Assembly: GCA_964507125.1 (NCBI GenBank)
Contig: CAZDOT010000001.1
Location: 47,559 to 111,558, forward strand
Origin: an uncultured Chitinophagales bacterium
Lineage (GTDB): Bacteria; Bacteroidota; Bacteroidia; Chitinophagales; JADIYW01
Direction: 5' to 3'
DNA length: 64,000 nucleotides
The stretch's first letter is position 1. The number at the start of each line of letters is the position of its first letter. The notes below the pieces were generated by a model, which was not told the origin of the DNA, did no database searches, and saw only the letters and a program-made list of their open reading frames with translations. Shown in pieces: positions 2,946 to 64,000 of this stretch. Position numbers and translations under genes: made by a program.

Positions 2946-4190
2946 TTATTGATTGCTCACTACCTTAATTCTTAAGGCAATAAAAATGCAAATAATGCCG
3001 CTAATAATAGAAATATAGCCTACGTGATTGAAATTTTCCACCTTGCCTTCCGGTGTAATGCTTACTACCAAACCACAAACCAAAGCGGCAACACCGGAAC
3101 CTAACTCTAAAAATGCGGAACGCATGCTCATAAAACCACCTCGTTTTTCGGGTGTGGTGGCACCAGTCATGATGGTATAAGCCGGAATAATTCTACCGGC
3201 AGCAAATACAAAAAATAAAATGCAAATACCAAATGCCAAATACAAGTTTACCTCTTTAATGTTGGTACTAATCCAAATTGGAATAAAAGACAACAACAAC
3301 AAGACGATAAATGAAGGCAAATTTCCTTTTTTATCACAAATTTTTCCGATTATAGGTGATGCAATTACTGTAGCAAGTCCACCTACCGCATACATCAACG
3401 ATTTAAGATGTTTATCAAATCCAATATTATTTTCAAAATATGGAACGATGAAAGTGATAACTACTTGATGCCCGAAAACCAATAAGAAAGCCAACAACAA
3501 GGCATACAATTGATTGGGATCTTTAAATACTTGTTTGGCATATGAAAATTGAATTTTCTTACTTTCTATATTTTTTAAATGCTCCTTCACCGGCGGAATC
3601 CAAACTATTAAAGCAAATAAAGTCAACACCGAAATAACAGCTAATACTTTAAAAGGCATTTGTATATCGTATACACTGGCAAGCGACAAACCAAACGGAA
3701 TACCGGTGATGGCCGCCACTGCAAACGACAGCGAAATAATACTGATTGCTGTAGCACGTCTATCGTACGGAATTAAATCACTTATTATAGAAGTGATTAC
3801 CCCACCGATGATACCACCAAATACGCCTGCGATACCTCTATATAAAATAAAAAGATGAAAATTATACGCAAATCCGCACAAAGCTGTTCCAATAATAAAC
3901 CCGATGAAAGTATAAATCAATAGATTTTTACGGTCGAATTTATCCATAATGCCTGCTGATAAAATACCGGCAATAAACGCCATTACCGAGTACGATGACA
4001 CCAACAAAGTTGATTCAATTGCACTTACATGAAAGGTTTTAATTACTTCATTAATGAGTGGCATCAACAACATAGAATCTACGGAAGCTAGATAACCTAC
4101 AAATGCCAATAAAAAAACTAATAAATATTCATTCTTCCTGCCATGTGGCATTTCCGATTCTTCTATTACAATATTATCTAACGTATCCAT
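2946..4190 (-). CDS. MFS transporter
   Basis: About 12 predicted TM helices and an MFS loop motif (GIMDKFDRKNLL). It starts 4 nt after the galK stop, so it is probably co-transcribed. Confidence 0.8.
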   Translation of the reverse strand: MDTLDNIVIEESEMPHGRKNEYLLVFLLAFVGYLASVDSMLLMPLINEVIKTFHVSAIESTLLVSSYSVMAFIAGILSAGIMDKFDRKNLLIYTFIGFIIGTALCGFAYNFHLFILYRGIAGVFGGIIGGVITSIISDLIPYDRRATAISIISLSFAVAAITGIPFGLSLASVYDIQMPFKVLAVISVLTLFALIVWIPPVKEHLKNIESKKIQFSYAKQVFKDPNQLYALLLAFLLVFGHQVVITFIVPYFENNIGFDKHLKSLMYAVGGLATVIASPIIGKICDKKGNLPSFIVLLLLSFIPIWISTNIKEVNLYLAFGICILFFVFAAGRIIPAYTIMTGATTPEKRGGFMSMRSAFLELGSGVAALVCGLVVSITPEGKVENFNHVGYISIISGIICIFIALRIKVVSNQ

Positions 4191-6185: not shown

Positions 6186-6695
6186 ATGGCAACAAGATTA
6201 AGACTACAAAGACACGGTGCTAAAGGTGCACCTTTCTACAAAATCGTAGCGGCAGACAGCCGTGCGAGAAGAGATGGTAAGTACATCGAGCAAGTAGGAA
6301 CCTACAACCCTACTACTATTCCTGCTACTATCACTTTAGATGTGGACAAAGCGGTAAAATGGCTTCAAAATGGTGCTGAGCCAACTACAACTGTAAAAGC
6401 TATCCTTTCTTACAAAGGAGCTATGTATAAAAAACACTTATTACGTGGTGTAACAATGGGCGTAGTTAAAGCTGAAGATGTAGAAGCTAAATTCAACGAA
6501 TGGGCTGCTAAAAAAGATGGTAAAGTATTAGACCACAAAGCAAAAGCAGAAGCTAAGAAAAAAGAGAAAAACGAAGCTATCATTAACACACCTGCAAAAG
6601 TTAAAGAAGTTCCGGTAGAAGCTACGGAAGAAACTTCAACTGAAAATGTTGAAGCAACTGAAGCAACTGAAACTCCGGCAGAATCTGCAGAATAA
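6186..6695 (+). CDS. rpsP: 30S ribosomal protein S16 with a long K/E/A/T-rich C-terminal extension
   Basis: MATRLRLQRHGAKGAPFYKIVAADSRARRDGKYIEQVGTYNP is the canonical S16 N-terminus. The ATG at 6186 is preferred over the upstream ORF start at 6144. The C-terminal half is low complexity. Confidence 0.9.
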   Translation: MATRLRLQRHGAKGAPFYKIVAADSRARRDGKYIEQVGTYNPTTIPATITLDVDKAVKWLQNGAEPTTTVKAILSYKGAMYKKHLLRGVTMGVVKAEDVEAKFNEWAAKKDGKVLDHKAKAEAKKKEKNEAIINTPAKVKEVPVEATEETSTENVEATEATETPAESAE

Positions 6696-8038: not shown

Positions 8039-8395
8039 ATGGAAAAGGTTAAAGAATTAACAAAAAAATTGACAGCAGAAAAGCAAATCCCTGAATTTAA
8101 AGCAGGTGACAACATAAACGTACACTACAAAATTATTGAAGGAACAAAAGAACGTATTCAGATTTTCCGTGGTGATGTAATTGAGCGAAAAGGAACCGGT
8201 GCTACACAAACATTTACTGTTCGTAAAATTTCTAACGGCGTTGGTGTAGAAAGAATCTTTCCTTTATTGTCGCCAAACATCGACAAAATTGAAGTAAATA
8301 AAATAGGTAAAGTACGTAGAGCTAAAATTTTCTACATCAGAGAATTAAAAGGTAAAGCATCTCGTATTAAAGAATTGGTTAAATCCACAAAATAG
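8039..8395 (+). CDS. rplS: 50S ribosomal protein L19
   Basis: [31 protein letters not shown] and [18 protein letters not shown] are typical L19 sequence. Confidence 0.93.
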
Positions 8396-18397: not shown

Positions 18398-18658
18398 TTA
18401 TTTTTTGATAGCATCTTTAGCAGCGTCAGCAGCTTTATCTACTGCACCAGCAGCAGCGTCTTTAGCAGCATCTACTACAGTACCAGCAGCAGCAGCAGTA
18501 GAATCTGCAGCAGCAGTAGCTGTTTCAGTTACCGCTTCGCCAACGGCTTCAGTTGCTTCAGTTACTTCTTCAGTAGCTTCTTCGGTTGCTTGGTTTTTGC
18601 AAGCTTGAACACCTACGAAAAGTGTTGCAGCTGCGAACAATACAAATAATTTTTTCAT
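18398..18658 (-). CDS. Small Ala/Thr/Glu-rich lipoprotein, paralog A (86 aa)
   Basis: Classical lipoprotein signal MKKLFVLFAAATLFVGVQAC, with its own -7 box and terminator. The mature part is low complexity (ATEEATEEVTEATEAV...DAAKDAAAGAVDKAADAAKDAIKK). Confidence 0.7.
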   Translation of the reverse strand: MKKLFVLFAAATLFVGVQACKNQATEEATEEVTEATEAVGEAVTETATAAADSTAAAAGTVVDAAKDAAAGAVDKAADAAKDAIKK

Positions 18659-18679
18659 TTTAAATTGGTTTAGTTAATA

Positions 18680-18687
18680 CAAAAATA
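18680..18687 (-). promoter_or_regulatory. -7 promoter box (TATTTTTG on minus strand) for lipoprotein gene A
   Basis: TAnnTTTG match 21 nt upstream of the ATG at 18658. Confidence 0.45.
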
Positions 18688-18734
18688 AAGTATTTGAGTA
18701 AAAATCCAAGTAACAATTTGTTAAAATTTGTCAA

Positions 18735-18763
18735 CAAAAAAAGGCTTCCTTTCGGAAGCCTTT
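18735..18763 (-). terminator. Rho-independent terminator of small lipoprotein gene B
   Basis: AAGGCTTCC-TTTC-GGAAGCCTT hairpin followed by a T-run on the minus strand. Confidence 0.7.
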
Positions 18764-18782
18764 ATAATCTGGTTTCAACCGA

Positions 18783-18974
18783 TTATTTTGCAGCAGCTGT
18801 ATCAGCAGCAGGTGCAGCAGCAGAATCAACAACAGCAGTTGTAGAATCAGCAGGAACTTCAGTTGTAACTTCAGTTGTTTCTTCAGTAGCAGCTTCTTCA
18901 GTTGCTTGGTTTTTGCAAGCTTGAACACCTACGAAAAGTGTAGCAGCTGCGAACAATACGAATAATTTTTTCAT
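18783..18974 (-). CDS. Small Ala/Thr/Glu-rich lipoprotein, paralog B (63 aa)
   Basis: Start set at ATG 18974 (MKKLFVLFAAATLFVGVQACKNQATEEA...). The first 24+ residues are identical to paralog A. It has its own -7 box (18998..19005) and terminator. Confidence 0.7.
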   Translation of the reverse strand: MKKLFVLFAAATLFVGVQACKNQATEEAATEETTEVTTEVPADSTTAVVDSAAAPAADTAAAK

Positions 18975-53692: not shown

Positions 53693-54058
53693 ATGAAAAA
53701 TATACTATTAAGTTGGATATGCTTAATGATTTATTGTTTACAAGTTCAAACAACATTCGCAAACAATGAAAAAGAAGTACTTACTAAAGCAGTTATTAAA
53801 ACTACTTTCTATTGTGATCATTGTTTAGAATGCGAATCATGTGCCGGACGATTTGAAACGCAACTTAAACATATAAAAGGTTTAAAAAAGTACACCATCT
53901 TCGATAAAAAAAATGCAATTGTAGTTTACTACAACAACAAACAAACTACGATACAAGACATAAGATTGGAAATATCAAAAATGGGATTTGATGCTGACAA
54001 CATTAAAGCCAACAGCAAAGCCTACAATAAATTAGATGCCTGTTGCAAGAAAAAATGA
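53693..54058 (+). CDS. Secreted heavy-metal-associated (HMA)-fold protein with an atypical CxxCxxCxxC site
   Basis: Signal peptide (...VQTTFA), then a beta-alpha-beta-beta-alpha-beta pattern with CDHCLECESC in the position of the canonical MxCxxC loop. The C-terminus is CCKKK. It is the last gene of the czc cluster. Confidence 0.7.
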   Translation: MKNILLSWICLMIYCLQVQTTFANNEKEVLTKAVIKTTFYCDHCLECESCAGRFETQLKHIKGLKKYTIFDKKNAIVVYYNNKQTTIQDIRLEISKMGFDADNIKANSKAYNKLDACCKKK

Positions 54059-54110
54059 AATAATGAAGTAATAAAATAATGTAATAATATTTTTTTTAAT
54101 TCAATCTCAA

Positions 54111-54371
54111 TACTTGCTACTCATTACTTACGTCTAAAAAAATCAACCGCAAAGTGCACAAAGTATTTACGCAAAGTTCTCAAAGTATTTTTCTTCTGAC
54201 AATTGGTCGGATGACTGTAAGTCATCTGACCAACATCTATACTGTCATTGCCTCGAAAGAGGTAATCTCCTTTTAAGTGTGTTGAGATTCCCATTTTCAC
54301 GAGAATGACACGCAACAAATTAATTGCAATTTATTCTTTCTACTTGCTACTCATTACTTACGTCTAAAAAA
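54111..54371. repeat. Perfect 31-bp direct repeats (54111..54141 and 54341..54371) bracketing a 199-bp non-coding, hairpin-rich insert
   Basis: Read directly: TACTTGCTACTCATTACTTACGTCTAAAAAA occurs twice, 230 bp apart. Flanking bases differ on both sides of each copy. Confidence 0.85.
54147..54190. repeat. Tandem 22-bp repeat (2 units) inside the insert
   Basis: CCGCAAAGTGCACAAAGTATTT / ACGCAAAGTTCTCAAAGTATTT, 18 of 22 positions identical. Each unit contains two CAAAGT cores. Confidence 0.8.
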
Positions 54372-54376
54372 GGTGT

Positions 54377-56371
54377 TTAGCAAAATTCAAAATCAATTGT
54401 TTTCTTTTCTATATCAACAGCTACTAATTTCACCATAGCATCATCACCCAATTGATATACTTTATCCGTACGTCGTCCTATCATGCGCATTTTACGTTCA
54501 TCATACACATACACATCATCTTTCAATGTTTCGCTGCGTACCATACCTTCGCAATTATACGCCGGAAGCTCTACATAAATTCCCCAATTTTTCACACCGG
54601 AAATTACGCCTTTAAACGTCTCTCCTATTCTATCCAATAAAAACTCAGCCATTTTATATTTTACAGAACTACGTTCCGCATCGGCGGCCGCACGCTCTCG
54701 CTCACTGCTATGCTTGCATTGATATTCTATTTCATCTTGTGTCGGTAATTTTTTGCGATGCATAATTTTATCCAACAAACGATGCACCATCACATCCGGA
54801 TAACGACGAATAGGCGATGTAAAATGCGTATAAAAATCGAACCCTAAACCATAATGCCCAATGTTTTCTGTTGTATAAATTGCCTTTGCCATACAACGAA
54901 TTGCTAACTGTTGCAATACTGCTTGTTCCGGTTTGCCGTCAATTTCTTGCATCAATTTATTCAATGCTTTCGCAATTTGTTTGGGATTATCAAATTGAAT
55001 TTTATAGCCAAATTTCTGTGCAAATAATTGGAAATCGATGAGCTTTTCTTCATTCGGTAAATCGTGTACTCGATATACGAATGGCACTTTTCCATTTTGG
55101 TTTACTTCTTTTCCAATATATGTAGCCACGGCTTTATTTGCCAACAACATAAAATCTTCTATCAGCAAATGTGCATCTTTTCGTTCTTTTACATACACAC
55201 CAATTGGCTTTCCATTTTCATCTAACTGAAACTTCGTTTCCGGTGCTTCAAATCCGATTGCTCCTTGTTTAAATCGATGTTTCCGCAAGATATGAGCCAA
55301 TGCATTTAACTGCAACAATTCTGCTTTAAACACACCATCTTTCCCTTCTAAAATTTCTTGTGCTTCATCATAAGTAAATCGCTTTTGAGAATGAATAACC
55401 GTTCTACCAAACCACGTCTCTTTTACATTGGCATTTGCATCCATTTTAAAAACAGCAGCATAGCAACATTTATCTTCATTCGGTCGCAATGAACACACGA
55501 TATTAGACAAACGTTCCGGAAACATCGGTGCAACTCTATCGACCAAATAAACCGAAGTGGCTCGTTTAAATGCTTCTTTTTCCATGGCAGAATGCTCAGC
55601 AACGTAATGCGATACATCTGCAATATGTACGCCAATTTCAAATAATCCATCTTCTAATGTTCGGATAGAAAGTGCATCATCAAAATCTTTTGCATCTGTC
55701 GGATCTATAGTAAATGTTGGTACTTTGGTAAAATCTCTGCGTTTTTTCTTTTCTTCATCTGATACTTTCAAATCTAATGCGTCGGCTTCATCCAATACAT
55801 TTTTTGGAAAAGAAGTAAAGAAACCATTCTCTACTAAAATGGATTTCATTTCAATATCATTGCTTCCTGCATTTCCTAAAATTTCGGTGATGTGTCCAAT
55901 TGGATTTTTATCTTTTGCTCTCCATTCAACTAATTCTACCACCACTTTATCGTGATGTTTGGCTTTGTGTGTTCGAGCTTCCGGAATATAAAAATCCGAT
56001 TTAATTCCTGGATTATCCGGCACTACAAAACAAGTATCGTTGATACGTTCAACCACGCCTATAAAATGTGTTCTATTACGTTTTACTATTTCTATTACCG
56101 TACATTCCGGTCTGGAACTATTGGGCTTGTGCATTCGTCGCACTTTCACCGTATCACCATCAAATGCATGGTTTACATTTTTGCGATGTACGTAATAATC
56201 TTTCGGTTTTCCATCTATCAGCACAAAACCATCACCGCTACGTGCAATGTCAATAACACCAATCAACTCTTCGCCTACAAAAAACGAAGTATGATTTTGA
56301 GTATCTGCTTTTTTAGCACGCTGGTGTGAAGCACCTTGTGTGCCTTTATTTATTTTTTTCTTTTTTGCCAT
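54377..56371 (-). CDS. rnr: Ribonuclease R (RNase II/VacB family 3'-5' exoribonuclease)
   Basis: A basic N-terminus and cold-shock-like domains are followed by the RNB catalytic motifs (TIDPTDAKDFDDAL, HYGLGFDFYTHFTSPIRRYPD). A C-terminal S1 domain is present (FKGVISGVKNWGIYVEL). Confidence 0.92.
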   Translation of the reverse strand: MAKKKKINKGTQGASHQRAKKADTQNHTSFFVGEELIGVIDIARSGDGFVLIDGKPKDYYVHRKNVNHAFDGDTVKVRRMHKPNSSRPECTVIEIVKRNRTHFIGVVERINDTCFVVPDNPGIKSDFYIPEARTHKAKHHDKVVVELVEWRAKDKNPIGHITEILGNAGSNDIEMKSILVENGFFTSFPKNVLDEADALDLKVSDEEKKKRRDFTKVPTFTIDPTDAKDFDDALSIRTLEDGLFEIGVHIADVSHYVAEHSAMEKEAFKRATSVYLVDRVAPMFPERLSNIVCSLRPNEDKCCYAAVFKMDANANVKETWFGRTVIHSQKRFTYDEAQEILEGKDGVFKAELLQLNALAHILRKHRFKQGAIGFEAPETKFQLDENGKPIGVYVKERKDAHLLIEDFMLLANKAVATYIGKEVNQNGKVPFVYRVHDLPNEEKLIDFQLFAQKFGYKIQFDNPKQIAKALNKLMQEIDGKPEQAVLQQLAIRCMAKAIYTTENIGHYGLGFDFYTHFTSPIRRYPDVMVHRLLDKIMHRKKLPTQDEIEYQCKHSSERERAAADAERSSVKYKMAEFLLDRIGETFKGVISGVKNWGIYVELPAYNCEGMVRSETLKDDVYVYDERKMRMIGRRTDKVYQLGDDAMVKLVAVDIEKKTIDFEFC

Positions 56372-56541
56372 ATATTATTACAAAGGTAATAGAAACGAAC
56401 CGCAAAATGGAATGTACAAAATGGGTCCTTGATATAATTCATACTAAATTTCAACAAATAAAAAATCTATCTATCGAAAAGAGTCAAAAAAAAGGTAGTT
56501 AAACTTTTAGTTTATCAATTAAATCTCAAAAAAAGTTGATA

Positions 56542-63373: not shown

Positions 63374-63423
63374 TAAATTTGAGACTTGAGATTTATAATA
63401 TGAAAAAACTACCAATATCTATA

Positions 63424-63465
63424 GACCAATGACTATTGACTATTGACCATCGACTATCGACCAAA
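63424..63465 (+). repeat. Heptamer array GACCAAT GACTATT GACTATT GACCATC GACTATC GACCAAA immediately upstream of the MATE transporter start
   Basis: Read directly: six tandem GACYAWY units ending 4 nt before the ATG at 63470. It is the same motif family as 43531..43564. Confidence 0.8.
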
Positions 63466-63469
63466 AAAA

Positions 63470-64000
63470 ATGCAATTAAAAGGTACATATAAAGAAATTT
63501 GGCAAATCTCCTATCCTATTATTTTAGGTAGTTTAGCCCATTCAATTAATCAATTAATTGATACAGCTTACTTAGGACATTCCTCCAAAACTGCATTAGA
63601 GTCCATTACATTAGCCGGTATTTATTATTTCGTGTTTGTATTTATTGCAGGTGGTTTGGCTCGTGGTGCACAGGTTATCATTGCCAGACACAGTGGTGAA
63701 AACAAACCGGAATTAATTGGAAAATCATTGGATCATTTAATCATGATGGCAAGTATTTTATCTATTTTTTTAATGCTGTTTTTTAGATATGCAACGCCGT
63801 TTATTATTCCAATGGTAGTTAAATCTACCGCCATTCAACAAGCTGTTTTAGAGTATATTTTCATGATGAATTATGCTGTATTTCCTGTTGTTTTAGGATT
63901 TTGTTTCAATGGATTTTATACCGGCATCGGACAAACAAGAATTATTACAGTTGCAACGGTTTTCATGGCTATCACCAATATCCTATTTGGCTATATATTT
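63470..64000 (+). CDS. MATE-family efflux transporter (3' end beyond window)
   Basis: My own translation from ATG 63470: MQLKGTYKEIWQISYPIILGSLAHSINQLIDTAYLGH...GLARGAQVIIARHSGENK. This is a typical MATE N-terminus, and the frame stays open to the window end. It is absent from the ORF track because no stop is reached. Confidence 0.8.
   Translation, partial: MQLKGTYKEIWQISYPIILGSLAHSINQLIDTAYLGHSSKTALESITLAGIYYFVFVFIAGGLARGAQVIIARHSGENKPELIGKSLDHLIMMASILSIFLMLFFRYATPFIIPMVVKSTAIQQAVLEYIFMMNYAVFPVVLGFCFNGFYTGIGQTRIITVATVFMAITNILFGYIF

Follow-up and report, generated by a model that had tools for sequence, protein, structure and literature searches.

The 64,000-nt stretch of DNA from an uncultured Chitinophagales bacterium that we analysed (the window; G+C 34%) carries a 318-bp spacer (54059–54376) between two convergent genes, one for a small HMA-domain protein and the other for RNase R (rnr), and within this spacer two perfect copies of a 31-mer, R1 and R2, bracket an interior of 199 bp. 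The account that we favour, as the more probable one, is that short resident modules make up the spacer between rnr and the HMA/cus genes as a small mosaic that is unstable in evolution, similar in kind to the Neisseria intergenic mosaic elements (NIMEs) and the bacterial interspersed mosaic elements (BIMEs). It is composed of discrete modules; these are orthologous to modules in the same spacer of a sister lineage, between the two lineages they are rearranged, and R2 is polymorphic. An original prediction, made by a model from the letters of the window, had described the interior as a structured insert, a candidate miniature mobile element or small-RNA gene.

Modules of the spacer and their order in a sister lineage

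The spacer is built of four kinds of module, namely R, M1, one palindrome and a pair of inverted hairpins, H2 and H1. With the genes on either side, the features of the locus are the following (L numbers are our handles for contigs and loci).

53693–54058, plus strand: small HMA-domain gene, last of a cusA/cusB-like operon (Pfam HMA, 1.9e-5)
54059–54110, unstranded: AT-rich stretch following the HMA stop; it contains a T-run and a tract of 8-nt periodicity (Tandem Repeats Finder, TRF, 54049–54088; L209 matches)
54111–54141, unstranded: R1, the HMA-proximal 31-mer, orthologous to the single sister R on both flanks (exact match; 64-nt L209 alignment)
54145–54191, unstranded: M1, a 22-nt tandem with four CAAAGT cores; the minus strand reads ACTTTGTGCACTTTGCGGTT (TRF; L209 match)
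54203–54233, unstranded: palindrome TTGGTCGGATGACT-GTA-AGTCATCTGACCAA, arms 54203–54216 and 54220–54233 (inverted repeat, 14 nt, 93% complementary)
54243–54269, plus strand: H2, an NTS/dRS3-like hairpin TGTCATTGCCTCGAAAGAGGTAATCTC (GTC, 8-bp stem, GAAA loop, C), then CTCCTTTTAA (83% to L209 H2)
54284–54310, minus strand: H1, an NTS/dRS3-like hairpin; the minus strand reads TGTCATTCTCGTGAAAATGGGAATCTC (88% to L209 2891–2916, inverted)
54311–54340, unstranded: AT-rich spacer from H1 to R2 (similarity to other spacers not significant)
54341–54371, unstranded: R2, the rnr-proximal 31-mer, polymorphic in the population (exact match; variant R2v; 76% to L209 R)
54377–56371, minus strand: rnr, RNase R (Pfam RNB 5e-112, plus CSD2, OB_RNB and S1)

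The sister lineage comprises L005, L207, L209 and L212–L214, with rnr about 91% identical in nucleotides and 96% in amino acids to that of the window. Read on the plus strand, the window has the order HMA, b4+b1-R1-M1-palindrome-H2-H1(inverted)-spacer-R2, rnr, and the sister genomes L005, L207 and L209 have the order cusB, b4-H2-M1b-H1-b1-R-M1a, rnr. In each of these three the same spacer contains M1, H1, H2 and a single R, and the shorter Logan contigs L212–L214 show M1a and the beginning of R. Mapped module by module, the window differs from the three sister genomes in order, orientation and copy number: modules that are interior in the window stand on the opposite side of R in the sister lineage, and the left part of the window spacer consists of sister b4 and b1 joined, with H2-M1b-H1 missing between them. 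The modules align with L209 as follows.

TCTCAA + R1 + M1: window 54105–54168, L209 2856–2793; 64 nt, 81%, E 4e-15
M1b: window 54145–54191, L209 2965–2919; 47 nt, 89%, E 1e-13
H2: window 54240–54274, L209 3002–2968; 83%
H1, inverted: window 54285–54310, L209 2891–2916; 88%
R2: window 54334–54367, L209 2857–2824; 76%
Left spacer: window 54054–54085, L209 3025–2994; window 54087–54098, L209 2884–2873

R1 keeps both of its ancestral flanks, TCTCAA and M1, and the R1/M1 junction is therefore ancestral and not the boundary of an insertion. Because the sister spacer already holds M1, H1 and H2, it is not an empty site and the interior is no foreign insert. Between the two lineages the modules are 81–89% identical, against 59% at fourfold-degenerate sites of rnr; the modules are thus either constrained or held near a family consensus, which fits constrained sites as well as members of a repeat family. 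The sister lineage alone shares the adjacency of rnr and cus, more distant relatives having other genes downstream of rnr. Comparison with rnr-based loci assigns the window to uncultured Chitinophagales/Sphingobacteriales-like Bacteroidota. Of these loci, which were drawn from 80 species representatives, L005 is the only one with this spacer, the others having different downstream genes; the members of the rnr protein cluster all have the sister arrangement, and none of them revealed a second lineage with the duplication.

The 31-mer, TACTTGCTACTCATTACTTACGTCTAAAAAA, occurs exactly twice, at 54111–54141 and 54341–54371. An exact-match search confirmed the original prediction that these are two perfect direct repeats, which chance does not explain: a third copy was not found in the window at up to three mismatches, and 0 matches were expected in 100 shuffles. 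The second copy ends, as had been described, 5 nt from the rnr stop codon (54377–54379), the gap being GGTGT. The sequence outside the copies differs, flank similarity being not significant against shuffles, and the repeat is thus sharply bounded and no simple tandem array. Also correct was the 7-nt periodicity of the 31-mer, which consists of a degenerate tract, TACTTGC TACTCAT TACTTAC, with GTCT and an A-run after it; among the sister genomes the R tract is a perfect (AGTAGTA)n in L214 and degenerate in L209. A dif/Xer site was considered as the identity of R and ruled out, as its sequence has no dyad symmetry. Near the end of the window a second 7-nt-periodic tract in the style of R, that is, heptamers and an A-run, occupies 63419–63470 (CTATAGA CCAATGA CTATTGA CTATTGA CCATCGA CTATCGA, ending in an A8 run), directly upstream of the start codon of an open reading frame (ORF) that runs off the window.

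R2 varies in the population. A variant, R2v (TTTTTTAGAAGTAAGTATAGAGTAGCAAGTA), is present in contig L001/L210 with three substitutions in 31 positions and the same interior sequence after it, and the rnr on L210 is 99.95% identical to that of the window. Three changes in 31 nt beside so nearly identical an rnr imply that R is hypervariable or under gene conversion. The perfect identity of the two copies is strain-specific, and it appears that strains whose copies are identical coexist with strains whose copies have diverged.

The interior was said to contain a 22-nt tandem duplication rich in CAAAGT, and TRF recovers it at 54148–54190 (period 22, 2.0 copies, 90% matches), with four cores in tandem starting at 54150, 54159, 54172 and 54181 (spacing 9/13/9). 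A profile search of the window revealed no further copy of M1. A Bacteroidota -33/-7 promoter within M1 was tried and rejected, since its TTTG elements are spaced 9/13/9 and TAnnTTTG does not follow at the expected distance. The hairpin described with 11-bp arms at 54205–54231 is present but larger than was thought, its palindrome having 14-nt arms; this palindrome dominates the centroid fold of both strands. An inverted-repeat search and reading of the sequence bear out that the interior is rich in hairpins, and place the TGACA/TGTCA outer stem (54197–54201 and 54243–54247), the CCTC-GAAA-GAGG hairpin (54251–54262) and the ATTCCC-N8-GAGAAT hairpin (54287–54306) where they had been reported. 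The 64-codon ORF is spurious, as suspected, with no Pfam family, homologue or encoding contig on record.

Look-alikes of M1 occur in L066, L208 and L192. In L066 (3870–3930) and L208 (773–835), which by rnr form an 88% lineage, the region about 110 nt upstream of rnr contains an M1-like unit, ACTTGTGCACTTTGCGGTT, and after it a degenerate AGTANNN heptamer tract. The region upstream of rnr in the window (56400–56430) has a degenerate TTTTGTACATTCCATTTTGCGGTT just before a TACCTTTG -7 box. The metagenome contig L192, of high G+C, has an inverted M1-like pair between two ORFs at 3040–3190 (AACCGCAAAGTCGCAAAG ... ACTTTGCGAACTTTGCGGTT, then CTTTGGGGCCTTTGCGGTT), which indicates that CTTTGCG-type tandems recur across distant lineages.

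The inverted hairpin units and known repeat families

The CCTC-GAAA-GAGG and ATTCCC-N8-GAGAAT hairpins are two inverted copies of one 27-nt unit, a relation on which the original prediction was silent. The two units (54243–54269 and 54284–54310) are 74% complementary and lie 14 nt apart, with 0 such pairs expected by chance. H1 is inverted relative both to H2 and to its orthologue in the sister genomes, and together they make a doublet that resembles a REPIN. The unit reads TGTCATT-stem-loop-stem-AATCTC and has in common with the Neisseria Transformation Sequence (NTS), CGTCATTCCCGCGMAVGCGGGAATCYRG, the GTCATT, the stem, the GGGAATC and a pyrimidine after it. The NTS, which contains dRS3 (ATTCCC-N8-GGGAAT), is bound and cut as single-stranded DNA (ssDNA) by the GIY-YIG nuclease SsnA, and a GTC upstream of its palindrome and a C directly behind it are critical for cleavage and binding (PMC11893778). 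H1, H2 and every copy in the sister genomes have such a GTC and such a C; the stems are 8 bp long. The likeness to NTS, dRS3 and the Ssn-related motif (SRM) lies in an oriented unit of GTC, ATT-stem-loop-stem-AAT and C, which is intergenic and clustered. Exact dRS3 sequences occur in the sister lineage, in L005 at 6193–6212 (H2) and in L209 H1. The weak Rfam match to FtrB, described further below, also falls on this hairpin and speaks for the link.

NIMEs consist of dRS3 repeats flanking diverse RS segments, and syntenic arrays vary between strains in the number and length of repeats (PMC1797815). The spacer resembles them in that dRS3-like hairpins stand between its short, unrelated modules and in that its arrays vary in module number and order between close lineages at syntenic sites, and the sister H1, 56-nt M1 segment and H2 correspond to a dRS3-RS-dRS3 unit. 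It differs in the small size of its array, which has two hairpins, and in its 7-nt-periodic tract and CAAAGT tandem, which are not described for NIMEs; hundreds of copies per genome are typical of Neisseria, and the 64 kb analysed here contain two. The inverted H2/H1 doublet, with its 27-nt arms, 14-nt spacer and location between convergent genes, recalls REP/BIME elements and REPINs, although the hairpins lack the GTAG head of the REP (repetitive extragenic palindromic) type; a role at terminators or mRNA ends is a possible further likeness. H2 and its T-run form the sole terminator-like site in the spacer (54247–54266, plus strand, that of the HMA/cus transcript), and H2 is probably the terminator of that transcript.

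Origin of the duplicated 31-mer

On the mosaic reading, R1 is the ancestral copy, and R2, or the block between the copies, would stem from a local event within the array with no foreign element involved. The event may have been a tandem duplication, or an unequal crossing-over of repeated modules, with deletions afterwards; template switching at hairpins is another candidate and gene conversion a further one, alone or in combination. R1 and R2 would be kept identical in this strain by gene conversion or by the recency of the event. The interior order of M1, H2, H1 and spacer would fit a tandem duplication of H2-M1b-H1-b1-R-M1a with subsequent deletions. The hairpins may form in ssDNA and, if the genome encodes an Ssn-type GIY-YIG ssDNA nuclease, would by analogy with Neisseria be candidate recognition sites for it; such recognition would make the spacer prone to recombination.

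Several observations weigh against this reading. Similarity outside the 31-mer, both in the R flanks and in the spacers, is not significant against shuffles, and an originally longer duplication is thus not demonstrated; a clean 31-bp duplication is also unusual for unequal crossing-over. With just two arrangement types at hand and distant relatives that differ downstream of rnr, the polarity of the rearrangement is not set. The palindrome was found in none of the fetched loci (about 1.4 Mb in total) and is specific to the lineage of the window. The 64-kb window holds two H copies only, and one tblastn query found no GIY-YIG gene in it. The published search criterion for an NTS, the 28-nt consensus CGTCATTCCCGCGMAVGCGGGAATCYRG with at most one mismatch (PMC11893778), leaves out H1 and H2, with 7 mismatches each, the best relative being L005 H2 with 5, including one compensatory stem pair. 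The SRM pattern HGTCWYN(0-2)YYVSBRHN(0-5)WNVSBRGN(0-2)RNCYNB has no match in the window spacer, L005, L209 or L123; it has 4 matches in the fetched loci, all outside the loci of interest. Exact dRS3 is likewise absent from the window, where H1 reads ATTCCC-N8-GAGAAT (1 mismatch) and H2 reads ATTACC-N8-GGCAAT (2 mismatches). The host, a Bacteroidota with 34% G+C, is a further difference from the NTS/SRM systems, and the link to NTS/dRS3 is one of resemblance, as H1 and H2 stand outside both formal definitions, NTS and SRM.

We consider it unlikely that the 31-bp repeats mark an insertion, in which a non-autonomous element, either like a miniature inverted-repeat transposable element (MITE) or a gene-less att-flanked remnant like a cis-mobilizable element (CIME), would have entered at R by the rnr stop and duplicated 31 bp. 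Such elements do take the form of a short non-coding block with direct repeats at its ends, and here the repeats are perfect, sharply bounded and surrounded by unrelated sequence. The interior is also made of repeat-family modules, a composite of M1 and R stands upstream of rnr in the 88% lineage (L066, L208), and a heptamer tract with a hairpin that lies apparently in frame inside the lspA gene of L113 implies that such modules can move. The R1-M1 junction, however, is common to the sister genomes and is thus older than the putative insertion, and there is no empty site, since the orthologous locus already houses the interior modules. These two facts leave the predicted insertion of a miniature mobile element with a long target duplication without support, and the expectation that relatives would have a single 31-mer came true only in part: the sister lineage has one R, but its spacer is not empty. 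Target duplications made by transposases are far shorter than 31 bp. The interior has no terminal inverted repeat that would join its ends, and a recombinase gene or remnant was not found in the 199 bp, where no ORF has a family match; this, and the interior modules beside the single R of the relatives, also speaks against the site-specific integration that had been proposed. Further copies of the modules are absent from the 64-kb window, and no other copy of the 199-bp block was found in the window, in the fetched loci or as a called ORF in public collections. Finally, in a co-occurring strain three sites distinguish R2 from R1. What survives is the looser idea of a repeat element, the interior being composed of repeat-family modules.

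The chance that the interior is instead a small regulatory RNA or a structured element of a 3' untranslated region, with the hairpins as its secondary structure, is in our view low. It is true that the modules are better conserved than neutral sites, that the hairpins are there and give folding z-scores of about -2 on both strands, that H2 is terminator-like and that NTS-like hairpins lie inside the annotated Francisella small RNA FtrB (RF02748), whose consensus contains GUCAUUCCCGCGUAGGCGGGAAUCUC, a hairpin of the same type. FtrB is the only recurrent weak match to Rfam (22 and 19 bits), aligned on the H hairpin, yet its best score, 22.1 bits, does not come near the gathering score of 66, and no other part of the model aligns, so that the resemblance is one of a shared motif. 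No Rfam family reaches threshold; the scan (Rfam 15, gathering thresholds) gave 0 matches in the whole window, and the small-RNA gene of the original prediction is left without support. Module order is not conserved between lineages; orientation also differs, H1 being inverted, and the hairpins decay in relatives, with uncompensated mismatches in L209 H2 and L005 H1. The spacer has no sigma-70-like promoter by a scan that does not cover Bacteroidota promoters, and it folds equally well on either strand, as DNA palindromes would.

Least probable of all, to the point that we regard it as very improbable, is an assembly error in which a loop of the 31-mer in a k=31 de Bruijn graph was mis-traversed, or a 230-bp unit collapsed or expanded. 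The length of the repeat equals a common k-mer size, all Logan k=31 contigs break at R, and the count of 230-bp units is not fixed by these data. The same strain is present in the Logan k=31 assemblies of SRR11567520, SRR11567528 and SRR11567529, where contigs end at the 31-mer, at 54140 from the HMA side (L003, L004) and at 54342 from the rnr side; L001/L210 ends exactly 30 nt past the last variant base, and another contig ends just before the first (54363). Against such an error, the junctions rnr-R2, R2v-interior and HMA-R1 are each found in independent contigs from the three samples, L001/L210 reads through R2v into the same interior, and other genomes conserve the junction of R with M1. 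This assembly thus did not create the arrangement.

Similar arrays elsewhere and other features of the window

A metagenome scan with GTAAGTANNGAGTAGNAAGTA gave at least 120 loci, mostly unrelated low-complexity matches, and the orthologous locus was not found among the matches listed. In viral contigs the R pattern matched only an unrelated heptamer microsatellite. Among the matches listed, heptamer tracts adjoin arrays of GTCAT...ATCT hairpins in the unrelated contigs L093, L113 and L123/L126, a recurrence that counts in favour of the mosaic reading, and hairpin density is 31 times higher within 300 nt of an R match than elsewhere, an excess that is driven by four loci. The arrays of L123/L126 adjoin a GIY-YIG gene of about 100 aa and a single domain (Pfam 3.7e-13), and the fact that this hairpin type flanks such a gene in other contigs is a further point of likeness to the NTS/SRM systems.

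In L123 (430–760 and 1130–1260) and L126 (1470–1735), arrays of GTCATTGCGAGGAACGAAGCAATCTC and GTCATCCTGAAATTGTTTCAGGATCTC hairpins, with a heptamer tract before them, flank the GIY-YIG gene. They look like an Ssn/SRM locus, and their hairpins fall outside the published SRM pattern. In L113 (Ga0265297_10011950), a heptamer tract and a short hairpin at 8090–8160 lie apparently in frame in lspA (Peptidase_A8, 1.9e-18), and the spacers to either side are crowded with GTCAT...ATCT hairpins and with long tracts of (TACTCAC)n. In L018, a Chitinophagales relative (rnr 79% identical in amino acids), tandem hairpin units of about 37 nt, GTCATTGCGAGGAACGAAGCAATCTG, most of them degenerate, lie downstream of rnr at 2281–2588; at the end of this contig is a fragment similar to the L123 GIY-YIG gene (weak tblastn, E 1e-8), with no Pfam match on its own.

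One could go further and suppose, as a speculation to which we attach little weight, that the heptamer tract, the GTCAT...ATCT hairpins and the CTTTGCG-type tandem are parts of one undescribed composite intergenic element that spans phyla and is reshuffled through ssDNA cuts by an Ssn-like GIY-YIG nuclease. The suggestion draws on the arrays of heptamers and hairpins in L093, L113 and L123/L126, the insertion in lspA of L113 and the M1 and R composite in L066 and L208, and under it the bounded duplication of the 31-bp R would be the footprint of a copying step.

A comparison of 2007 held that NIME arrays do not occur outside Neisseria (PMC1797815). The Ssn study of 2025 (Chenal et al.) found related hairpins to be widespread and does not mention heptamers, tandem repeats or Bacteroidota (PMC11893778). 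A literature search by sequence strings returned only coincidences with primers. If the mosaic reading is right, hairpins of NTS/dRS3 type, outside the published NTS and SRM patterns, take part in a small, rearranging NIME-like mosaic of an uncultured Chitinophagales-like bacterium. The scientific pay-off of this single locus is modest. Perfect direct repeats of k-mer length in such spacers break k=31 assemblies, and they can pass for the footprints of insertions.

The genes at the two ends of the spacer also differ between the lineages. The HMA-domain gene is not in the sister genomes, and L005 and L209 pass from cusB directly into the spacer. The string TGAAATAATG(A/T)AGTAAT, common to the window and the sister lineage (L005 6217–6274, L209 3000–3057), overlaps the HMA stop codon. 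The boundary (window 53693–54058 against L005/L209) suggests loss or gain of the gene, possibly through ATGAAA microhomology. At the other end, rnr encodes 668 aa in L005/L207 and 664 aa in the window and L209, with a stop-codon change of TAA versus AAA and an end in ...CKNVF, so that the initial bases of the spacer are coding in some relatives. A scan of the window for tRNA and tmRNA genes was empty. Far from the spacer, TRF found a cluster of 3-, 12-, 18-, 24- and 36-nt tandem repeats at 18419–18907, rich in CAG/GCA (CTTCAGTTGCTT), which is presumably a low-complexity coding region.

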